A DNA stretch of 64,000 nt from Octopus vulgaris. Taxonomy: Eukaryota. Location: the NCBI GenBank assembly GCA_951406725.2, contig OX597823.1, positions 58,714,001-58,778,000 on the forward strand. The letters are read 5' to 3'. Shown here piece by piece: positions 746-56,694 of the stretch. The position numbers were made by a program, and so were the translations under genes. How positions within the stretch are numbered: the first letter of the stretch is position 1; each line of letters begins with the position of its first letter. The notes beneath the pieces are model-generated. The model worked only from the letters and a program-made list of their open reading frames with translations, made no database searches and was not told the DNA's origin.

Positions 746-1035
746 CTCTCTCCTTATATATATATGTATATACATTTGTGTATGTGTGTGTGTGTATGTT
801 TGTGCATTTATGTATATATATATATGTATATACATTTGTGTATGTGTGTGTGTGTATGTTTGTGCATTTATGTATATATATGTATAAATAAGTACTTGGT
901 TTGCTTTTCAGTATTTACCATTAAAGAGGAAAGAATCACTTTTAGGCTAAAGTAAGTTAAGTTGAAAAACATGCATAGAGAGGACGAAATAGTTTTAACT
1001 TTATTCAACTTATATATATATATATATGATATATA

Positions 1036-1222
1036 CAGTAAATCCCAAAAAGAAGAAACACAAGAAAACAACAATGCGAGGAAGCGGTACATATAATGTA
1101 TTAGGAAAATAAAGAAAGGTGGTTTAGCGTTTCGAGCAGATGCTCTTCTTCGGAAATAGAGGAAAGTCCAATAGAAGGGAAGACGGAGGAAGAAAATCGC
1201 CAACGATTCACATTTTGAAATG
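1036..1222 (-). mobile_element. Short Penelope-like element end with a degenerate minimal hammerhead
   Basis: Homologous to 40223-40428. Minus strand 1156-1123 reads ttt CCGAAGA A GAGC atct GCTC GAAA CG C T aaa. The element abuts (TA)n. Confidence 0.6.
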
Positions 1223-1850
1223 ACCGTATGTATCTTGTTATCTGTGATTAATTTTTCTCTGTTTTGGTTGTAACATAACACAGATGTTCGAATAACAGTA
1301 TGGTTAATATTATTTTCACTGAGACCCTCCATCTTTATTCATTAGCCACTATTTTCTGCTGTCATTTTTCCATCTCCCTTCTTCCATCTTTCCCTCTCTT
1401 GTTTAATCTCTCTCTCACCTTTCTTTTGGTTCCTCATTGCCTTGTCTGTTTCCTCTTCCTGTACTCTTCTCCGCAATTTTTTCTCTTATAGAATGCCCTT
1501 TTCATTTCCCATAATTCTACTTACAACGCTTGCTTGATTTTGTTTTTAACAGCTACGCTTTAAATCACTTCATTTTTCACTGCTCCCCAGACACTCTTCG
1601 TTACACCGTGTTCAAGTAATGTCCGAAATTACTTATTTTACTCTCAATATTACATCTCCACAACACTGTCCTTGCTGGTCTCTTTTGTTTTATCCCAGTC
1701 GAAATTCACTGTTTAGCATCCTTTTTTATTTTGTCATTTGTCAGGGTTATATCAGCCGAAAATATCTTGTATTTTCCGTATGTTAATATTGTTATGTCGA
1801 AGCTCCTAATATTTGATTGCACATATTAATCTATTATATATGTATATATG

Positions 1851-1884
<34 letters not shown>

Positions 1885-2029
1885 TGTATGTATGTATGTA
1901 TGTATGTATGTATGTATTTATGCATGTATGTATGTATATATATATGCATGTATGGTTGTATGTATAAATGTAAATATATCTATCTATCTATCTATCTATT
2001 TTTTTCTCTCTCTTTCTCTCTCTCTCTCT

Positions 2030-2074
<45 letters not shown>

Positions 2075-2077
<3 letters not shown>

Positions 2078-2278
2078 TAAAGCCTCGACTATCGCGAGTG
2101 TTACGCACCAAAGCCTCCGACAAAAATAATTAAAATCTGAAATTATAAATACCTATCGACCGCAGAAACCCGGATATACTGAGGAGTCCACGATATAAAT
2201 TTACATATATTAGCCAGAAAAATCCACATTGTACTGAGTGCTCGATAGGTGAACCGTGATATGGTAAAGGATTGCTAT
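2075..2278. mobile_element. pogo/Tigger-like MITE, degraded
   Basis: Begins TA|CAGTAAAGCCTCGACTATCGCG and ends ggtgaaccgtgatatggtaaaggattgctata. Same family as 34046-34263. Confidence 0.6.
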
Positions 2279-2306
2279 ATAGAGAAATATATATATTCAT
2301 ACATTA

Positions 2307-2438
2307 TATCTGTAAAATTAATATGTGACAATTATTCGGCCAGATAACTGAAGACGTGGCGGTGTGGGTTTCCGCCCGACGAAACTCAGAGTTTTATCAT
2401 GGCTACCAAATAATTGTCACGTATTAATTTTACAGATA
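2307..2438. repeat. 33-bp inverted repeat enclosing the hammerhead
   Basis: 2307-2339 matches the reverse complement of 2406-2438 at 31/33 positions. Confidence 0.9.
2343..2398 (+). ncRNA. Type I hammerhead ribozyme motif
   Basis: Stem I GATAA(2343-47)/TTATC(2394-98). Core CTGAAGA at 2348-54. Stem II GT-GGCGG/CCGCC-(CG bulge)-AC. GAAA at 2381-84. Quasi-palindromic stem III ACTC-A-GAGT. Cleavage triplet GUU. Confidence 0.8.
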
Positions 2439-2733
2439 CATTCCTCTATTTACATAATATCGAGGTCTCTTTCATTCTTTTGTTGTCTTAACATTTCTAT
2501 CAATATTAATACATTATATATATATATATATATACACACACATATATATATATATATACATATGTTCTCCTATAGTTATCGCCTCAATGTCCATATTTTT
2601 ACAGTTAATGTCTTGTGTCATGAAACATTTGCCTGACAGAAAATTTGTTTAAATCTACAGGAAAGTTGAAAGCTATTAAAACTGTTGCTAAAATGTTCCA
2701 AAATCGTAGCAAAATGCGCGCACGCACACACAG

Positions 2734-2791
<58 letters not shown>

Positions 2792-4018
2792 GCACACATA
2801 CATATAAATATTACGAACAAGTCGATGCTTCACTCCATTTCTACTCTGTGTTTTAAATAAGATTACACACACCATATGCACACACGTACTCAGACATGTA
2901 CACGAGCACATATAAATACATGCATACACACGCATACACACACACACACACACAAACATCCCCCCACACACATGGGCTCTCAGAGGAGTGAAGGCAAAGC
3001 TAACGTTAGGCTTGCATCTTTTGGTGCCGATTAAAATTATTCCAGTAATCCACCACTGTCGTTTGGAGGAACTGTTGCAAGACCAGAAATGATGCCTTGC
3101 AGTAAGTGTACTTTCTCTTTGTGTCTTGAGAGTAGCGTCTGCGAAGAGTATAGTCTGCCAAGTTTTCGACCCATCAAGGGAAGGTCTTGTGTAAGCATGG
3201 TCAACCCAGACATTTATGTGCATATTCATGACCCACCTTCATCAATGGTGTTCCTGTGAGTTAAGAGATTTGGCTTATGGTTATTTTTAATCTCTTAAAT
3301 ATGATAAGAGCATCGAGTTCCTCTTTCGTGCACGTTAAGGTATCACTCTTTGGGTCAGTGAACGGCATTTTCGCAACACAATACGGGTTCTTCAGAAGCT
3401 ATTCACGAGCATTTTGCTTTCCATTCTTGACTCATATCAGCGAATATTTCGTTGAACAATGCAGCATTTCCTTTTTAAATCCTCGTACATCAACGAGTGG
3501 TCAGATTTTTCATCTTCCTCCGCACATTTCCATTGTTTTCTTGAGCAGAAACTAAACCTAACACTAACCTAATATTAAACCTGGCCACAACCACTAACCG
3601 TAAGTCCTAACCCTAAACTATCACAAAAACAGAGTGTTACCGTCTTCAGTCACCTCATTCTGTTTATCTCTATTTCTAGACGTCCGTATTTGAATAATTG
3701 GCCAATTAATTGCAAAATTTGATTATAATTGTAAATATTATGATTGTAAAATGTGATCAATCTGAATAAAAGAAGATATTCTGATAAGATATTCAGATCG
3801 ATTCTTTGTGTGGGACATGTTTAAGCCCGGAATTATGGGTTAAAACAAGATTCTAATGAAAATAAACACCACCATCCTTCACCTGCTTTATTTGAAAGAA
3901 ACAAGAGAAAGAGTATAGTAGAAATTTCTGTTGGAAGTAAAAATGCAGCAAATTTCTCAAACGAGATGAATGTAAAAGTCTTCACTTTTTCTTTTATTTC
4001 CCTACTCTCAACTTTATG

Positions 4019-4045
4019 CTGAAAAAGTACTCTGTCCGAAACGTT
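4019..4045 (+). ncRNA. Degenerate minimal hammerhead motif
   Basis: CTGAAAA A GTAC tct GTCC GAAA CGTT. G8 is mutated, stem II has one mismatch and stem I is not evident. Confidence 0.4.
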
Positions 4046-4604
4046 AGCTACTCTAATCCTTATTGTGCTCTTACTGTCTTTTTACACATGCTCACACACA
4101 CACACATTATTTAAATATATATATACATCTCTATATGTACATTTATGTATATTATATATATAAACTGAGAGAGTTAGAGGGAGAGATATAGATAGATTAA
4201 TAGATAAATAGAGAGAGAGAGAGAGAGACAGACAGAGGAAGAAAGAGAGAGATAAAGAGGAAAGAAGCAAATTTTTATATCGGATATTTTAAATGAACAT
4301 AGTGTTCTTTCTTCGAATAGACAATTTTTCGCTCTAATTTAATAAAGGCTTGCGAAAAACGGGTTTGTTCATAGGAGGTATTATCAATACAGCTGAAGTG
4401 AAATAGATCCAAGCTGGAATTGAAATCGCAGTGCATTGATAAACAACGCTGGCGATGGGGAATGATGGATTTTTGTTTATGAACATCATACTGCTTAAAA
4501 TCAAATAAGTGCTCTTACCTGGATACGCGTGCACCGCACACATTTATACGCACAGAACATGCACACAGGTACACACTCCACACTCCACACACTGCGACAT
4601 ATAT

Positions 4605-13324: not shown

Positions 13325-15645
13325 CACTGGTTGACGAAATTAAATGTATTATACTCAATTATAAAATTGACATGTATATACAAAATTAAATGTATTATGA
13401 ATGCAAACCAAATATTTTAGACTAATTTTTCATGCTGCTTTCAAAATTGCACTCCATTTGTATGCAACAAATATCAGTTTTTCAGATGCTACATGCAAAT
13501 ATTTACATATTTGTATATATGAAATCATTAACGTAATAAATAAAGACATATTTTTAGAAAGTTATTGAGTTTATTGAGTTAAAAATCATCACTATCATTC
13601 TACAAAGAGTGAATACACAAAAAAATGGGTCAGAACAAAGTTAGAACAACAGAGTTAGAAACATTGTGATTTGGATTTCCTGCGGTGTTCCTGATCTGGT
13701 TGATCTCAGTAAACTGTCCAGCAATAGTTAACCAGCATACTGTCATACCAGAAGCCTTGGTATGGTCTCCATAGCACTAATGTGCTGGTGAAATATTTCC
13801 CCATGTTCATCAGACATTACTCCAAGGTTATCTGCTAAGAAATCCAGATGGGAGTCCAAGAAGTGAACTTTCAGTGACATGCGACAACCCATTGCTGCAT
13901 TTCCATTAATATTTCAGAAGATTCTTGATACCATTTTTGTAGTCCATCGCCTTCTTGTTGCCCAAGAAATTCTCACAGATCCAATTGAAAGCATTCTATG
14001 CAGGCAGTTCCAGTTCATCCAGTGTTGTCTTGAAGTTGACATCTTTGAGTACTTCTCTAATTTGGGGTCCCTCTTTCAACTTCGCCTGGCATTTATCTTC
14101 ACTAGTGGCTTTACAAATTATTTTATCAGTCCAACCTTTATGTGGAAAGGAGGCAGTAGGTCATTACATGGATCTGCAAGAAGTGTATTCTTGATGTTAG
14201 ACAGCCCTGGCTAGTAGGATGTTTTTGTTGATTTCGTATATTTGTCAGTTGCCCGACTATACCACAGACACAAGAAACAATAGTATTTTGTGAAACCTGA
14301 CTGCATTCCCATTAACATTCCAATGATTTTTAAACCTCTACATATTTTCCATGAGCATCTTTCATAGGCAATGGCGTAAAGTAAAAGTTCCATATTCTCA
14401 TAAGGTTCATGAAGGTGAACGGAGTGTGCAATAGAAATGGAGGGATTCAAATTACCATTATGGAGAAGTACGGTCTTTAAACTTCGTTGTGAAGACTTAA
14501 TAAACAAATGCCACTTTGCAAGATCATGATTTTGTGATAAACATTCAAAAATACCATCGCTGTTATTGCAAAAGCAAAAGTAGCCTTCAATAGAAAAACA
14601 CGTTTGTAGAATCACATTTCTCTGCCGAAAATAAGTTATACGAATACCGTGCTCTAGTAGATACTTCTCCTTCGGTCTTGAAGCCAACACTTCTGCTTTA
14701 TCCTTTGAGAGGGATACGTCTCTGACAAGGTCATTCAGTTCAACTTGGGAAAATTTCTGAGGTTCAAAGCTATCGTCATCAGCCACGTAATCCTCTTCCG
14801 AAGCACTATCGTGACAGTCAGCATCCTCACCTGATGTTTCAATACCATTATCTAGTGGAACTGGAATTGGCAGACTTTCATTGTGAGGCACAGGTCTCAC
14901 TGCAGAATACAAATTAGGATAAACAATTTTGTGTTTATTCTTCCTAGAAAATCCTGTGACACTTACTTTGCAAAAATAACAGTAATTAAAACGGTCTTTC
15001 GGCTCCTTTCATATCATTGGAATGTCAAAGGCATGGACCTCTTATTGAACTAGTCACGTAAGCCATTTGAGCAAGATGAGCAGATAAAATCTAGTGTCCA
15101 TAGCTTGTCCTGATCTCCAGGAGGACAGTCAAAGTATAGCTTATAAATCTTCTTGATCTCTTGTGTTATTGTACGTTTAGACATAACAAAACACATCAGG
15201 ACGATTTCTACATTGTCTTGACAGTGTTAACATTGTAAAACAAGTAAGGAAATAGATACAAATGGTTATACTTATATTGAATTTGAGATAATGAAATATT
15301 TTATCAGACCAATTATGACTGGACAATTTTAGATGTTGAAATACCTATTTCGTCAGACAAAACTTGACTGGTTAATTTAAGATGATGAAATATTGCGACT
15401 GAACTATGCAGCAATGAATAGTGTAGTTTATTTTAAAGGTATGTCTGTATGATGTAAATTAAATAGATACACACACGTCATTAATTGGAATTTCTATATA
15501 ATGCATGACCTAAATTCAAAAATATTTTTCATCTTGAAAACTGTACGCGATGTCAAAAAGCTAATTGTATATTTGAAATCAGCTTTAATTTCTCCACTAA
15601 GTACATTTTGATATATGCTTCATGAAAAATATTTGTTGACCAGTG
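13325..15645 (-). mobile_element. Full-length decayed Chapaev3-like (CMC superfamily) DNA transposon
   Basis: Termini CACTGG...CCAGTG, 3-bp TAA duplication at 13322-24 and 15646-48, and an internal transposase pseudogene. The family name comes from recalled CACTG termini and TWA TSD. Confidence 0.8.
13655..15233 (-). pseudogene. Chapaev3-like transposase, with frameshifts and stops
   Basis: Motifs CRNRPDVFCYV, YSAVRPVPH, SKDKAEVLASR, SLKTVLLHNGN, GFTKYYCFLCLW, MSLKVHFLDSHLDF and SDEHGEIFHQ are readable across frames. ORF 14211-14912 is one piece. Confidence 0.85.
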
Positions 15646-17363: not shown

Positions 17364-17468
17364 ATAGAATGGTTGTATACTGTCAATCTAACAAGAACGT
17401 GACAGTAGGGGGTACAGCGGTGGTGTACCCCCTACTGTCACGTTCTTGTTAGATTGACAGTATACAAC

Positions 17469-17476
<8 letters not shown>
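17364..17476. repeat. Perfect 53-bp inverted repeat with 7-nt loop
   Basis: 17364-17416 is the exact reverse complement of 17424-17476. The loop is gcggtgg. Confidence 0.95.
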
Positions 17477-23277: not shown

Positions 23278-24575
23278 CGAGGGGTGTATGAAAAGTCTTG
23301 AGCCTCAAAAAAACCAAACATGGTAAAGACTTCTGATGATTTATTTTTCAACATAGTCCCCCTCGATGGCTGAACACTGTCTCCAGCGGTGCCGAAGCAC
23401 TATTATCCCGGCGTAGAAGAACTCTTCTGTTTGAGACTTCAAGAAACTGCTTACAGCGTCTATGACGTCATTGTCACTGGCAAAATGGCTACCAAACAGG
23501 GCTTTTTTCATTTATAGAAATAGAGGAATGTCAGAGGGGGCTAAGTCTGGCGAATAAGGCGAATGGGGAACAAGTTCGTATCAACAATCACGAATTGTTA
23601 CCATGGCAACCACTGAGGCGTGGGATGGGGCATTCTCGGGATGAAAAAGGACTCTTCTGGTGAGCATTCCCGGCCTTTTTTCTTTGATTGCTTTTCGGAG
23701 GCGTTTCAGTAGCTGAGAATAATACATCCCTGTCACGGTGTGACTCTTTTCAAGGTAATCAATCAGCAAGACGCCTTGAGAATCCCAAAAGACGGACGCC
23801 ATGACCTTGCCAGCTGAAGGAATGACCCTGGCCTTCTTTGGGGTAGGAGAAGATGTGTGTTTCTATTGCTTTGATTGTTCATGGTTTCAGGCTGGTAGTG
23901 ATGAACCCAAATTTCGTCCATAGTAATGAAACGAGCTAGAAAATTCTCTTCATCGGCTTCAAAAAGTTCCAGATTGCTTGTGGACAAAGTACACCTGGTA
24001 CGTTTCTGTTCAGGAGTCAAAAGGCGAAGGACCCACCTTGCAGAAACCTTTGAGAACCCAAGTTCTTTTGTCACAATGTTGTCTGCTCTTTCAGTTGAGA
24101 TGCTCAGTCTCTCGGCTATCTGACGACATGATATTCGGCGATCTTGCATTATCGTACCAAGAGCAAGGTCAAGGTTGTCCTTTGTGGTTACAGTTGGAGG
24201 TCTCCCTTGTCTGGGATCATCTTCCACACTCTCCCTGCCACGTTTGAATTCATTTACCCAGCGTTTGACTGTTGCATATGAAGGAGAATTGTCTGTTAAG
24301 GTTCTCACCATATCTTCATGGATTTCTGATGGAGTCATGCCTTTCAAATGAAGGCACTTTATGACAGCACGATACTCAGTTTTCACCATTTTCCTTGTAA
24401 ACTCGAAGCTTGTTTATTCAAAAATCTGCAAAAAAAAAAAAAAAAATTAAAATATCAGAATCATGAAAATGAGCAAGAATATTTCGAAAAGACTGTACTT
24501 ACCAGAAAAAAATTGTTTCAGCTATATAGCAGCCCCGTTTCTAGGTTAGGCTCAAAACTTTTCATACACCCCTCA
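23278..24575 (-). mobile_element. Full-length (about 1.3 kb) decayed mariner transposon, irritans-like
   Basis: 28-bp TIRs cgaggggtgtatgaaaagtcttgagcct and aggctcaaaacttttcatacacccctca, in a TA-rich target. Confidence 0.92.
23341..24389 (-). pseudogene. Mariner DD34D transposase pseudogene
   Basis: MVKTEYRAVIK..., WVLRLL (WVPxxL), ITMDEIWVHHYQPET, then a frameshift, MASVFWD, HPENAPSH (second D changed to E), PYSPDLAPSD, an in-frame stop, and GDYVEK* at the end. Confidence 0.92.
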
Positions 24576-32527: not shown

Positions 32528-34045
32528 AACTTAATGTACATCACTACATTCCTCGAAAATGAAGAGATTGCATGCAAAGAGACTGGTCAGAAAACACACT
32601 TACTTTACAAATTAAATCTGTACACAGACTTATAAAAATATGAAGTCTTTTTTAAAATCTAGATGCAGGCGAAAGGACTTGTTTCGTTGCTAAAAGTCAA
32701 TGTACATGACTCTCTGTCTCTATCTGTCTGGCTCTGGCCCTGTCTCTCTGTCTCTGTCTCTGTCTTTATCTCTCTGACTGTCTGTCTCTCTGTCTCTCTC
32801 TCTCTCTTTCTCTCACGCAGCCTAGCTTGTATGTAATTTCTTCACAAGATATTGATTAACACGAGGTTATAGTAAATGTTACTTGCCCAATAAATAGTAA
32901 AATGGGAATGAATCTTGAAGCTCATGGCTGAGATACGAACTTCTTAGCTACATAAACATGTCTGCGCATGTTGTTTTAGAATGATTAATGATATACCGAA
33001 ATATTTAACAGCTTGCTGCTGTCTGTATTTGTACGCTAATATATTTATTGGTATCAAACATGAAAAGCTGCGGTATCTGCAGAAAAAGACATGCTTCTGG
33101 AAAAAAATCAGCTGTTCTCTGTTAATAATTCGTAATTCTCGGGCTTAATGATAAGATTGTTATCGGAAATTACTGTACGTTCTTTTGTTGGAAAGTCAGT
33201 TTCGTACTGTGCATTCTTTTGTTGGGTTGAGGACTTCGTGTTCTGCTGGCAGTGTCACCGGTTTAGTATCTGTTGGTGGATATGGAAATAAAAGTGAATA
33301 GATACAACATGGTTAGACGACACGAAGAGTAAGCCTGATATCAAAATTATTTAATAACGCTAGCAAGAATAACCGGGCTACTTCGAATCCAAAATAAATG
33401 CGCATAGTAGAAGAATAGCAAGAGCGCATTAAGTTTACAACAGCAAAGAGGAAAAGCTCCTGCTGCGTATTATTTACTAAAATACGTTTAAAATAGATTG
33501 CATGACAAATCATTTACACAAAACTTATACTGTTTAGTGTAACGAAGGTTCGCCAAGTGTAACTGCCTGTTGGACACATACGTGGCATATTATTAATTTC
33601 TATTCTTCACGAATAAGTATTGCTTATTAGCAATAGGTAACCCTTTGGAAAATGAAAACGGTTATATCCGTTCAAAATTGTATTATCCTTACTTTTCTTT
33701 ATGCTGCGAGAAGTGAGGACATTTCCATTTCCAGTGACGCTTTTTATAAAGGACCATTTTGTTTTTCACGTATTTCATCAAATATCTCTTTAACGAGCAG
33801 AAATCAAATACTTTTTGTGGCGGATATTTAAACGGTGCATACGGGAGATACCGCAAAATGCATTGCAGGAGTAGAAAATATAAATTCGAGTTTTTTTTGG
33901 TGGATAATTTACATCAATATGAGAATGACTATAAATTTTAATTGTGCTGTCAAAGATAGATCAAAGGTAGTTCACAGAGCTACAGTTTTGTTACATTTTT
34001 GCTACACTTTTGCTATGAATCCATATGTGTATGTGCAGTAGAACA

Positions 34046-34263
34046 AAGTAATCCCTCGACTATCGTGGGTTCAAATACCCCTACATGATAGGTGAAAATC
34101 CGCGAAGTAGAAACAATACTGTACTGTATATATATATATTTTTAATTTTATAATTTGTACATATTTATTTTATTATAAATGCAAAGCAACACCCCGGAGG
34201 AATCGACGTAAGCTTAAATAATAAACCGCGATTGGTGAACCGTGATATGGCGAGGGATTACTG
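34046..34263. mobile_element. pogo/Tigger-like MITE
   Basis: Ends AGTAATCCCTCG and CGAGGGATTACTG|TA. Confidence 0.75.
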
Positions 34264-34288
34264 TATAAACACACACACACACACACAC

Positions 34289-38072: not shown

Positions 38073-38103
<31 letters not shown>

Positions 38104-38382
38104 CAACAATTGAGGGTAAAATTAATTAATTAATCAATTTCACCAAGTGTTCAGTATGTAAAAGGACCATTTAAGGCGAATTCAAAATATTACATTATAT
38201 AATTAGGGCTTAGTAAAATAAATTACTTTGCCACATACTAAACTTAGTAGAAATAGCAGCCAAAAAAAATTTTCTTAGCATTTCTACTACTTAAAGAAAA
38301 TTTCTCTCAGATAATGTTTACTCCAGACAGCTCACGAAGGTTTGGGGGTAAATACAGAAAAATATCACAAGTACATAGATCG

Positions 38383-38445
38383 TTTGAGTACGTCAACGTT
38401 TCAAGATTAGCCAAATAAAATCAGCATTTCTTTCGTCAGCTCAAA
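38383..38445 (-). ncRNA. Type I hammerhead ribozyme, inverted copy
   Basis: Exact reverse complement of 38941-39003. Confidence 0.85.
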
Positions 38446-38940
38446 ATTTCTTAATTTGGATTTGGAAACACTAAAAAGAAGGAACTTTACCTATCAGCGA
38501 ACTTGTCGCTTCAGATGAACCACTCCAACTAAACAGTGTCAACAAATTCAAAATGCGCAGGCGTAAAATTCTACTAAGTTCAGTATGTGGCAAAGTAATT
38601 TATTTTACTAAGCCCTAATTATATAATGTAATATTTTGAATTCGCCTTAAATGGTCCTTTTACATACTGAACACTTGGTGAAATTGATTAATTAATTAAT
38701 TTTACCCTCAATTGTTGATATTATAATTCATTTCTCTCGGTCATACTGCCTCGGTTCTCGCGGTTAAAATATAATGTTTGCTAGATAGACCACGTGGGTG
38801 GAATGGGGAGTGCAGAATTTTACGCCTGCGCATTTTGAATTTGTTGACACTGTTTAGTTGGAGTGGTTCATCTGAAGCGACAAGTTCGCTGATAGGTAAA
38901 GTTCCTTCTTTTTAGTGTTTCCAAATCCAAATTAAGAAAT

Positions 38941-39003
38941 TTTGAGCTGACGAAAGAAATGCTGATTTTATTTGGCTAATCTTGAAACGTTGACGTACTC
39001 AAA
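38941..39003 (+). ncRNA. Type I hammerhead ribozyme
   Basis: Stem I TTTGAG/CTCAAA. Core CTGACGA at 38947-53. Stem II AAGA/TCTT plus GCTGA/TTGGC. GAAA at 38984-87. Stem III ACG-TTGA-CGT. Triplet GUA, with cleavage predicted after 38997. Confidence 0.85.
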
Positions 39004-39183
39004 CGATCTATGTACTTGTGATATTTTTCTGTATTTACCCCCAAACCTTCGTGAGCTGTCTGGAGTAAACATTATCTGAGAGAAATTTTCTTTAAGTAGT
39101 AGAAATGCTAAGAAAATTTTTTTGGCTGCTATTTCTACTAAGTTCAGTATGTGGCAAAGTAATTTATTTTACTAAGCCCTAAT

Positions 39184-39226
<43 letters not shown>

Positions 39227-39271
39227 GGAATATTTCGAAGGGAATAAAAAATATAAACACTTACCATCTAA

Positions 39272-39344
39272 CTCCTGTACCATGGTTTCAAACTCGATTT
39301 AGCAAATAAAGTAATTTGCCCGGCAAATTTCTCATCAGCGGGAG
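39272..39344 (-). ncRNA. Type I hammerhead ribozyme motif
   Basis: Minus strand ctcccg CTGATGA G AAATTTG...CGAGTTT GAAA CCATGG T A caggag. Palindromic stem III ACCATGGT, triplet GUA, one stem I mismatch. Confidence 0.75.
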
Positions 39345-39943
39345 CGCCAAGATTAACATACAAATACGAGGCAACACAGTGCATGCCTCGTGCTTACATA
39401 TAACTTTTCAAACCCACCGCGTAAGCGCAGTTTTATTTTTTGTCAGCAGCAAATAAAACTAATACCGAGTTGCTTCAAAATATTAGCCCCGAAAATTATA
39501 AATAAATATCAGGGAAGGAAAAATCTCAGAAATTTTTACTACCATTGGCCTAACATGTGGAAAACTAGTCAATAGACTTCGAAATTATCCCTAATAGTGG
39601 GTTGGATTTTGACTACTCCTTCTAGCGTGTTAGATGTCCTATTATAGTAATTTCTTATATGTTTAAATGTACACTGTATTTATATGAATAATATATGGTC
39701 TATTGACTAGTTTTCCACATGCTTTGCCACTGATAGTAAAAATTTCTGAGATTTTTCCTACCCTGATATTTATTAAAAATTTTTGGGGCTAATTTTTTGA
39801 AACAAGTCAGCATTATTTTTCTTTGCTGCCGACAAAATAAAAAAAAGAAAAAAACTGCGCTTGCGCGGTGGATTTGAAAAATTATAATATGTAAGCACCA
39901 GGCATGTACTGTGTTGCCTCGTATATTTATGCTAATCTTGGCG

Positions 39944-40016
39944 CTCCTGCTGATGAGGACTTCGCTTGGAAATATACTTTATTTGCTAACTAGAGTTTGT
40001 AACCATGGCCCAGAAG
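39944..40016 (+). ncRNA. Decayed hammerhead copy
   Basis: ctcctg CTGATGA ... GTAA CCATGG C C cagaag. GAAA and U16.1 are mutated. Confidence 0.6.
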
Positions 40017-40222
40017 TTAGATGGTAAATGTTTTTATTTTTCATTCCCTTCGAAATTATCCTCAATAGTGGTTTGGATTTTGACTACTCCTTCTAGTGTG
40101 TTAGATGTTCTATTATGTCCATCTCTTATGTGTTTAAATGTATACTGTATTTTATTATATATATACATATACATATATATATATACTTACATAAAAACAC
40201 ACACACACACACATATATATAT

Positions 40223-40428
40223 AGTAAATCCCCCAAAACAAGGACAACAAACACAAAAAAAACAATGCGAGGACTTGGTACATGTAAATTATTAGCAGAC
40301 GCAACAGGGAAGGAAAGAAAGATCGTTTAACGTTTCGGGCAACGTTCTTCTTCAAAAAGAGAGGAAAGTCCAATAGAAAGGAAGATGGAGAAAATTCCCA
40401 ACGGTTCACATCTGGTTACATTTTGAAA
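40223..40428 (-). mobile_element. Short Penelope-like element end with a degenerate minimal hammerhead
   Basis: Homologous to 1036-1222. Minus strand 40358-40326 reads ttt TTGAAGA A GAAC gtt GCCC GAAA CG T T aaa. Confidence 0.6.
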
Positions 40429-40980: not shown

Positions 40981-40986
40981 ATATAT

Positions 40987-41220
40987 CCCCTACTTTTCTT
41001 TTCCTGTTTGACCCCTCTGTCCGGCACTAGTCGCCATGATAGATCGTTAGCCACTACACAGATTTTTTTCTCTCCTTGTTTTTTTCTGTGTCCCTTTCTG
41101 TAGAAGAGCGTAGGCTCGAAACGTAAAATACTTTTTCTATTCCTGAGCGTTATACTAATACATCTGTTTGTTTTGTACACCACCTGTCTTCGTCTTTTGT
41201 TTTTTTCGTAAACTCTCCCT
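40987..41220 (+). mobile_element. Short Penelope-like element end in (TA)n with a minimal hammerhead variant
   Basis: 41095-41128 reads ttt CTGTAGA A GAGC gtag GCTC GAAA CG T A aaa. (TA)n on both sides. Confidence 0.65.
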
Positions 41221-41241
41221 ATATATGTATATATGTATATA

Positions 41242-55914: not shown

Positions 55915-56694
55915 GTGAATAAACTGTCGTCTAAATTATGCAAAATTGCATAAAAATATCTTGAAATACTAAAGAGTAAATTTATTCTATAACTTTATTC
56001 TATAAATTGGCTTCAATCACGGCCTCCAGACGACTTGGGAATTTTCTGTAACTCTTCTGGACGGTTCCCTGGTATAAGTTGGTGAATGCTGACATGATCA
56101 TTGCTTTCAGTTCATCTTTGGTGTTAGAAAGGGTTTTGTTGGTCTCTCGCTCAACTGCACCCCACACATAATAATTAAGCGGGTTGCAGTCGGGGGAATT
56201 AGGTGGCCAAATCTTAGGGGTGATGTGGTCATAGAAATTGTCTGACAGCCATGACTGGATGCTCTTGCTTTTGCGGCATGGTGCAGAGTCCTGTTGCCAC
56301 TCATAGGATTTTCCAGCAGGCACACTCTGCTTCCAGGCACATGATGTAGGTTTTCGTGTTGAGTCTGAGGCCGTGTGGGAAGATGAGTGGAGGCATAACT
56401 TCGCCATCACTCGTGATCACTCCAAACACCATGATGTTGACTTAAAGTTTGATTTTTATCACTCTCGGTACGTGTCCTCAGATTGAAACCCAAACACTCT
56501 GAAATGCCAAGCAGTACAGCATGTTGTTTCCAAATTTCTGGCAGAGTGTGTTTGTCTTGCTGTTTTTTGGTGCTGTTTTTTCTCATAGACGGTACCCAAC
56601 TGACCCTACTATACTATGTAGCGGACCAAATCAAAAATAAACAATACGCATGCGTACAATAAAAAATATAAAATGGCATAATTCACCCATCGCA

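Follow-up and report, generated by a model that had tools for sequence, protein, structure and literature searches.

A hammerhead-bearing, inverted-plus-direct insertion in the Octopus vulgaris genome is probably a dead, 5'-truncated Penelope-like element copy

We identified positions 2307–2502 of the window (the whole 64,000-nucleotide stretch of DNA that was analysed) as, with a probability of roughly 0.8, a Penelope-like retroelement (PLE) copy that is dead and 5'-truncated, belongs to a high-copy family, and is composed of an inverted and a direct copy of family sequence. The PLE features present are an inverted copy whose junction varies among sister copies, as seen in single-contig joints, a tail at one end, a hammerhead motif, and an AT-rich target. 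Membership of the family in the PLEs is likely, and we regard it as unproven because no parent ORF was reached. Matches to RT or GIY-YIG domains numbered zero among the 146 of 474 window open stretches that were scanned, with none in the 2307–2502 copy, and the public contigs are covered for only 30 letters beyond the stretch. The features of the locus are as follows.

2293–2306, no strand: likely target-site duplication, left copy, 14 nt (17 nt counting the ambiguous TAT at 2307–2309)
2307–2339, minus strand: inverted, 5'-truncated copy, 33 nt, matching family sequence 2406–2438 at 31/33 positions
2339–2502, plus strand: direct copy of the end module of the family, truncated at its 5' end, covered by contigs in four of four runs
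2343–2398, plus strand: type I hammerhead motif, assessed by pattern, family comparison and fold
2343–2347/2394–2398, plus strand: hammerhead stem I, 4 bp longer via 2339–2342/2400–2403
2348–2354, plus strand: hammerhead core CTGAAGA, followed by the unpaired C2355
2356–2380, plus strand: hammerhead stem II, eroded, followed by GAAA at 2381–2384
2384–2392, plus strand: stem III near-palindrome, 9 nt, with a central mismatch
2391–2393, plus strand: GUU triplet; cleavage is predicted after U2393
2406–2438, plus strand: inverted repeat, right arm, lying within the direct copy, with private substitutions at 2408 and 2421
2439–2502, plus strand: tail-like extension, 64 nt, at the right end only, covered by family contigs and with a predicted fold
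2503–2516, no strand: likely target-site duplication, right copy, with a TA tract coming next

The 31/33 match between 2307–2339 and 2406–2438 forms an inverted repeat that extends on neither side. The initial annotation had reported this repeat around the hammerhead; it was recovered on recomputation, and non-simple inverted repeats of such kind occur four times in the real window and not at all in 15 shuffles. The hammerhead is enclosed by the repeat as had been stated, but the whole unit is not, given that the right arm is internal. Since 64 nucleotides of family sequence lie beyond the right arm, the arms do not constitute terminal repeats; the left end equals family position 2438 and the right end 2502, which leaves an extension at one end only. 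A small hairpin is predicted within this extension at approximately 2443–2466. At 2408 and 2421, 85–98% of contig depth in all four runs carries the alternative letter, which is the one in the left arm, and thus both mismatches between the arms arose later, in the right arm.

The outer boundaries are given by a direct repeat. Positions 2293–2309 and 2503–2519 agree at 16 of 17 letters and are the sole two places in the window that do so at one mismatch or fewer, and when margins of TA tracts were paired at random, with draws less than 300 nucleotides apart skipped, 38 of 3,000 pairs did equally well. Judged by its sequence, this repeat is likely a 14-nucleotide target-site duplication (TSD) plus three ambiguous letters. 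As it flanks the unit, the insertion comprises 2307–2502 and measures 196 nucleotides, which replaces the earlier figure of about 220. The likely TSD directly abuts the left arm, whose outer end recurs as a terminus in the family: 23, 25, and 46 contigs in runs X1, X2, and X4, respectively, end their match at 2305 and continue into mixed TA-rich flanks. The right end of the direct copy is fixed by the direct repeat, and contig ends at 2502–2504 were discounted as independent evidence because 2505–2560 was masked during contig matching. A second cluster of loose contig ends is found at 2487 (36 contigs in X4 and 34 in X6). The direct copy as a whole is likely a PLE pseudo-LTR plus tail.

Short inverted repeats within AT-rich DNA, together with a separate MITE-like element that adjoins at 2075–2280, could suggest that the unit is a MITE or other DNA transposon derivative bounded by terminal inverted repeats, or that part of it was duplicated locally in inverted orientation once it had inserted. 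However, the right arm is internal, with 64 nucleotides separating it from the end, the direct repeat measures 14 nucleotides rather than being TA, and the identical arm recurs in sister copies with different junctions. The MITE reading is largely refuted by these observations, and we consider this group of explanations highly improbable.

The hammerhead itself contains all core letters, as well as the G10.1–C11.1 pair. The intact core, palindromic stem III, and GUU triplet recorded by the initial annotation were confirmed, and a strict hammerhead descriptor, composed after the motif had been seen, finds one match in the window and none in 200 shuffles. Rfam yields no match at gathering score over the whole window, and its hammerhead models are not among the 29 matches obtained at E ≤ 10 over positions 800–4500. 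The earlier proposal that this family is distinct from the others in the window holds: no sister of the 2343–2398 hammerhead occurs elsewhere in the 64 kb, where the one other match falls on the adjoining MITE-like element. In metagenome contigs, two pattern scans for the hammerhead returned zero loci. Separately, a viral scan produced three candidate loci whose matches span only 19–22 nucleotides, and these were judged to be due to chance. We found no paper on the hammerhead of this family in the literature search, although Repbase, Dfam, and supplements, which were outside that search, may contain it.

Sister copies are abundant in public data. Part of the stretch is present in 20 of the 24 public runs listed, from 12 studies, and no run contains half of its words; no RNA runs containing it are listed on record. 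Contigs matching the family number 1,503, 2,721, 4,059, and 2,050 in four runs that carry four organism labels, with contig depth used neither as copy number nor as a truncation gradient. No differences at a level of at least 5% among family contigs are listed at 2339–2367, 2382–2387, or 2389–2406, and therefore the core, stem I, and the palindrome are common to the sisters, with the qualification that contigs were aligned at 80% likeness and that selection for likeness favours apparent conservation of the core. A conserved core among homologues, on which the earlier proposal depended, was thus found in sister contigs. At 2388, the central position of the palindrome, G accounts for 60–83% of contig depth.

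Stem II differs from the rest of the motif in the family comparison. Contig depth drops at 2376–2381, to 81 in X1 versus thousands on either side, insertions are listed behind 2374–2379, and loose ends begin at 2377 and 2380 (24–74 contigs per row). Three spanning sister records are five to six letters longer than the window copy, and by eye, from the loose ends, the family stem II could form an eight-base-pair helix. Because stem II of the sisters is approximately five nucleotides longer, we regard the window copy as eroded, with about five nucleotides lost beside GAAA. Alternatively, the short stem II might be a variant typical of the lineage from which the window comes, since the best public run shares just 0.49 of the words of the stretch.

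The folding predictions are dominated by the arms. The z-score of the fold of 2295–2510 is –7.7 because of the arms, and that of the hammerhead alone is –0.8. The pairing probability of stem I is 0.99 when the left arm is included and 0.00 in 2340–2502 alone, and an active-like monomer fold costs 8.3 kcal/mol with the arms and 17.7 kcal/mol without the left arm. Even with the arms, pairing between the core and the stem III strand is predicted at P = 0.95. Stem III had been described as too tight to fold in a monomer, and its pairing probability of 0.002–0.019 agrees with that description; a three-base-pair stem with a three-nucleotide loop can nevertheless be drawn. In these models the inverted arm clamps stem I, a point in favour of the initial annotation, yet without yielding an active fold, and the hammerhead of this copy is predicted to be inactive as a monomer. 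Neither the five or so nucleotides missing from stem II nor the predicted misfold fits the working ribozyme first envisaged for the window copy. No tandem partner for a hammerhead dimer is present in the window. A hand-drawn double hammerhead of two 2339–2405 strands, with the A15.1–U16.1 pairs omitted, has an energy of –38.8 kcal/mol, compared with –45.4 for a pair of monomers and –49.3 for the dimer folded freely, a comparison that is indicative only, given that fold energies ignore the catalytic core. The arm clamp would be expected to oppose the strand exchange needed by a dimer.

Joints among the sister copies bear on whether the 33-base-pair stem is a fixed property of the family. Twelve joints (nine of the 13 table rows plus three further rows) exit the left arm at 2335–2340 and restart at ten distinct positions from 2378 to 2466, none of them at the cut site, 2394. 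Each joint is represented by one contig, with 20–26 letters on the short side at 80% likeness. In seven of the 12, the known in-between letters differ from the junction of the window copy, and in three of these seven the letters, by eye, prolong the inverted copy by 4, 7, and 17 nucleotides. Five of the 12 restart at 2432–2466, so the direct copy of those five sisters lacks the hammerhead. The other seven restarts fall at 2378–2390, a count that is biased by the stem II deletion of the window copy. Sister arms are therefore joined at other points, and arm length is specific to the copy.

These joints weigh against the idea, put forward initially, of a miniature family in which a fixed 33-base-pair stem caps a working ribozyme. 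In a related form, the fold-back unit with its junction at 2339 would be transcribed and re-copied by a PLE protein as a stable non-autonomous mini-family, with the arm clamping stem I. The recurrence of the outer end of the arm in 23–46 contigs per run would fit this, as would the rise in stem I pairing from 0.00 to 0.99 that the arm brings. Moreover, the in-between letters are undefined in five of the 12 joints, and two of these (restarts 2380 and 2382) could share the window junction and the full hammerhead. On the other hand, the junction letters differ in seven of the 12 joints, no record bridges 2339 among the 32 listed of about 10,500 pieces, stem II is eroded, and the clamped monomer is still predicted to misfold. 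We consider such a mini-family unlikely. To the same degree we doubt that the unit is a self-propagating non-coding parasite of PLEs in which the arm, reaching precisely to the extended stem I, clamps the hammerhead, and that, in general, the folded hammerhead rather than its cut sets the stop of reverse transcription and the template switch, as the seven restarts at 2378–2390 and the lack of any at 2394 might suggest, subject to the bias noted above.

The size and organization of the unit also invite comparison with non-LTR retrozymes, which are defined, in the portions available of PMC7229834 and of bioRxiv 10.64898/2026.07.22.740005, by tandem units. If this were the origin of the copy, it would be a solo monomer of an element with tandem units of 150–450 bp and a circular RNA intermediate, inserted with an inversion. 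The locus resembles metazoan non-LTR retrozymes, as far as they are described there, in its small non-coding unit without an ORF after the hammerhead, type I hammerhead, low GC content, and long TSD (PMC7229834, in part); solo monomers are common, and retrozymes descend from PLEs (bioRxiv 10.64898/2026.07.22.740005, in part). Unlike them, it occurs as a single copy in the window with no tandem neighbour, has ends that miss the cut site, and carries an inverted arm. In addition, none of the 13 rows listed contains a joint that leads from the 3' end back into the hammerhead, and the combination of a long helix II and an extra base is of the PLE type. A retrozyme monomer is accordingly even less probable than the mini-family.

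A truncated PLE copy could have arisen as follows; we infer the enzyme and the order of steps from the literature on PLEs. Acting in trans, a GIY-YIG/RT protein would nick AT-rich DNA, and reverse transcription would start twice within the family RNA, at sites corresponding to 2438 and to approximately 2487–2502. One copy would halt after 33 nucleotides and the other after 164 nucleotides, just past the hammerhead. The RNA template was presumably uncut, as the copy continues across the predicted cleavage position. The two copies would then be joined head to head at a two-nucleotide GG overlap (2338–2339) and come to sit between duplicated target letters. The hairpin would be a by-product of insertion and the hammerhead an inheritance from the pseudo-LTR, while the substitutions and the loss in stem II would have come after insertion.

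Several other elements were observed in the window. A young PLE-type insertion in a TA tract at 38103–39189 is a textbook case of the same layout as 2307–2502, and the earlier proposal of a shared inverted 5' arrangement is supported by it. It has an extension of about 90 nucleotides on the left end only and contains the following features.

38103–38572, inverted: copy nearly identical to the direct one
38575–39189, direct: partial tandem
38439–38389, minus strand: hammerhead
38947–38997, plus strand: hammerhead

Directly after it, at approximately 39230–40060, lies a long imperfect inverted-repeat element with a central non-simple inverted repeat of at least 33 nucleotides. Three decayed minimal hammerhead-like copies without stem III are situated between TA tracts at 1029–1213 (minus strand), 40215–40411 (minus strand), and 40985–41225 (plus strand); the first two are 74% alike and the third is more distant. 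The MITE-like element at 2075–2280 and 34020–34265 has decayed terminal inverted repeats starting with CAGTA, its copies share mainly their ends, and we take it to be of Tigger/pogo likeness. Tc1/mariner transposase fragments (HTH_Tnp_Tc3_2, HTH_48, Transposase_1, and a weak DDE_3) at 426–746, 23584–24413, and 56003–56416, all on the minus strand, provide the only Pfam matches among the open stretches scanned (146 of 474). A 265-amino-acid open stretch at 14211–15008 (minus strand) has no Pfam match and resembles a transposon-derived protein fragment, and a near-perfect palindrome of 113 nucleotides, 96% self-complementary, is located at 17364–17476.

Taken alone, the 2307–2502 copy matters little, as it would be a single case among a great many dead PLE-type end copies. 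The family, however, is a natural data set: given an assembly, thousands of junctions could be used to test for a bias of inversion to the ribozyme fold or the cut site.

The hammerhead shares several features with those of metazoan PLEs as described in part of PMC4209133, where PLE hammerheads have a long helix II, a short helix I, an unpaired base 5' of stem II, and a palindromic helix III. Most such motifs occur singly, as remnants of truncated PLEs, and they show no cleavage as monomers and low cleavage as dimers (PMC4209133). The present motif has a short helix I, an unpaired base between positions 9 and 10.1, the G10.1–C11.1 pair, a palindromic helix III and, in the family, a long helix II. 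It departs from that description in its nine-nucleotide palindrome with a variable central base, its shortened, bulged helix II, and its GUU triplet. According to part of PMC11167929, the PLE hammerhead is protein-assisted, and its cleavage is dispensable for insertion in vitro.

PLE insertions are described in part of PMC8557442 as carrying an inverted 5'-truncated copy and a tail of 30–40 bp at either end, with a bias toward microsatellites; the origin of such structures is termed undefined there. The window is approximately 36% GC and rich in microsatellites; it has the look of animal DNA, with microsatellites and repeats of an octopus-like character. Inverted pLTRs with TSDs of 8–10 bp have been reported in PLEs (PMC3846280, in part), and the tail has been tied to two internal starts of reverse transcription at an AT-rich target (PMC11167929, in part). 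The extension of about 50–64 nucleotides and the TSD of 14 nucleotides exceed these published values, and unlike the EN+ PLEs in the published portions cited here, the 2307–2502 copy is just 196 nucleotides long, too short to display the partial tandem of a pseudo-LTR, with no ORF seen. As in EN+ PLEs (Penelope/Poseidon, Neptune), however, it consists of an inverted and a direct truncated copy placed head to head with two different outer termini, and it shares with them an AT-rich or TA target, a TSD, a hammerhead in the end module, and a high copy number.
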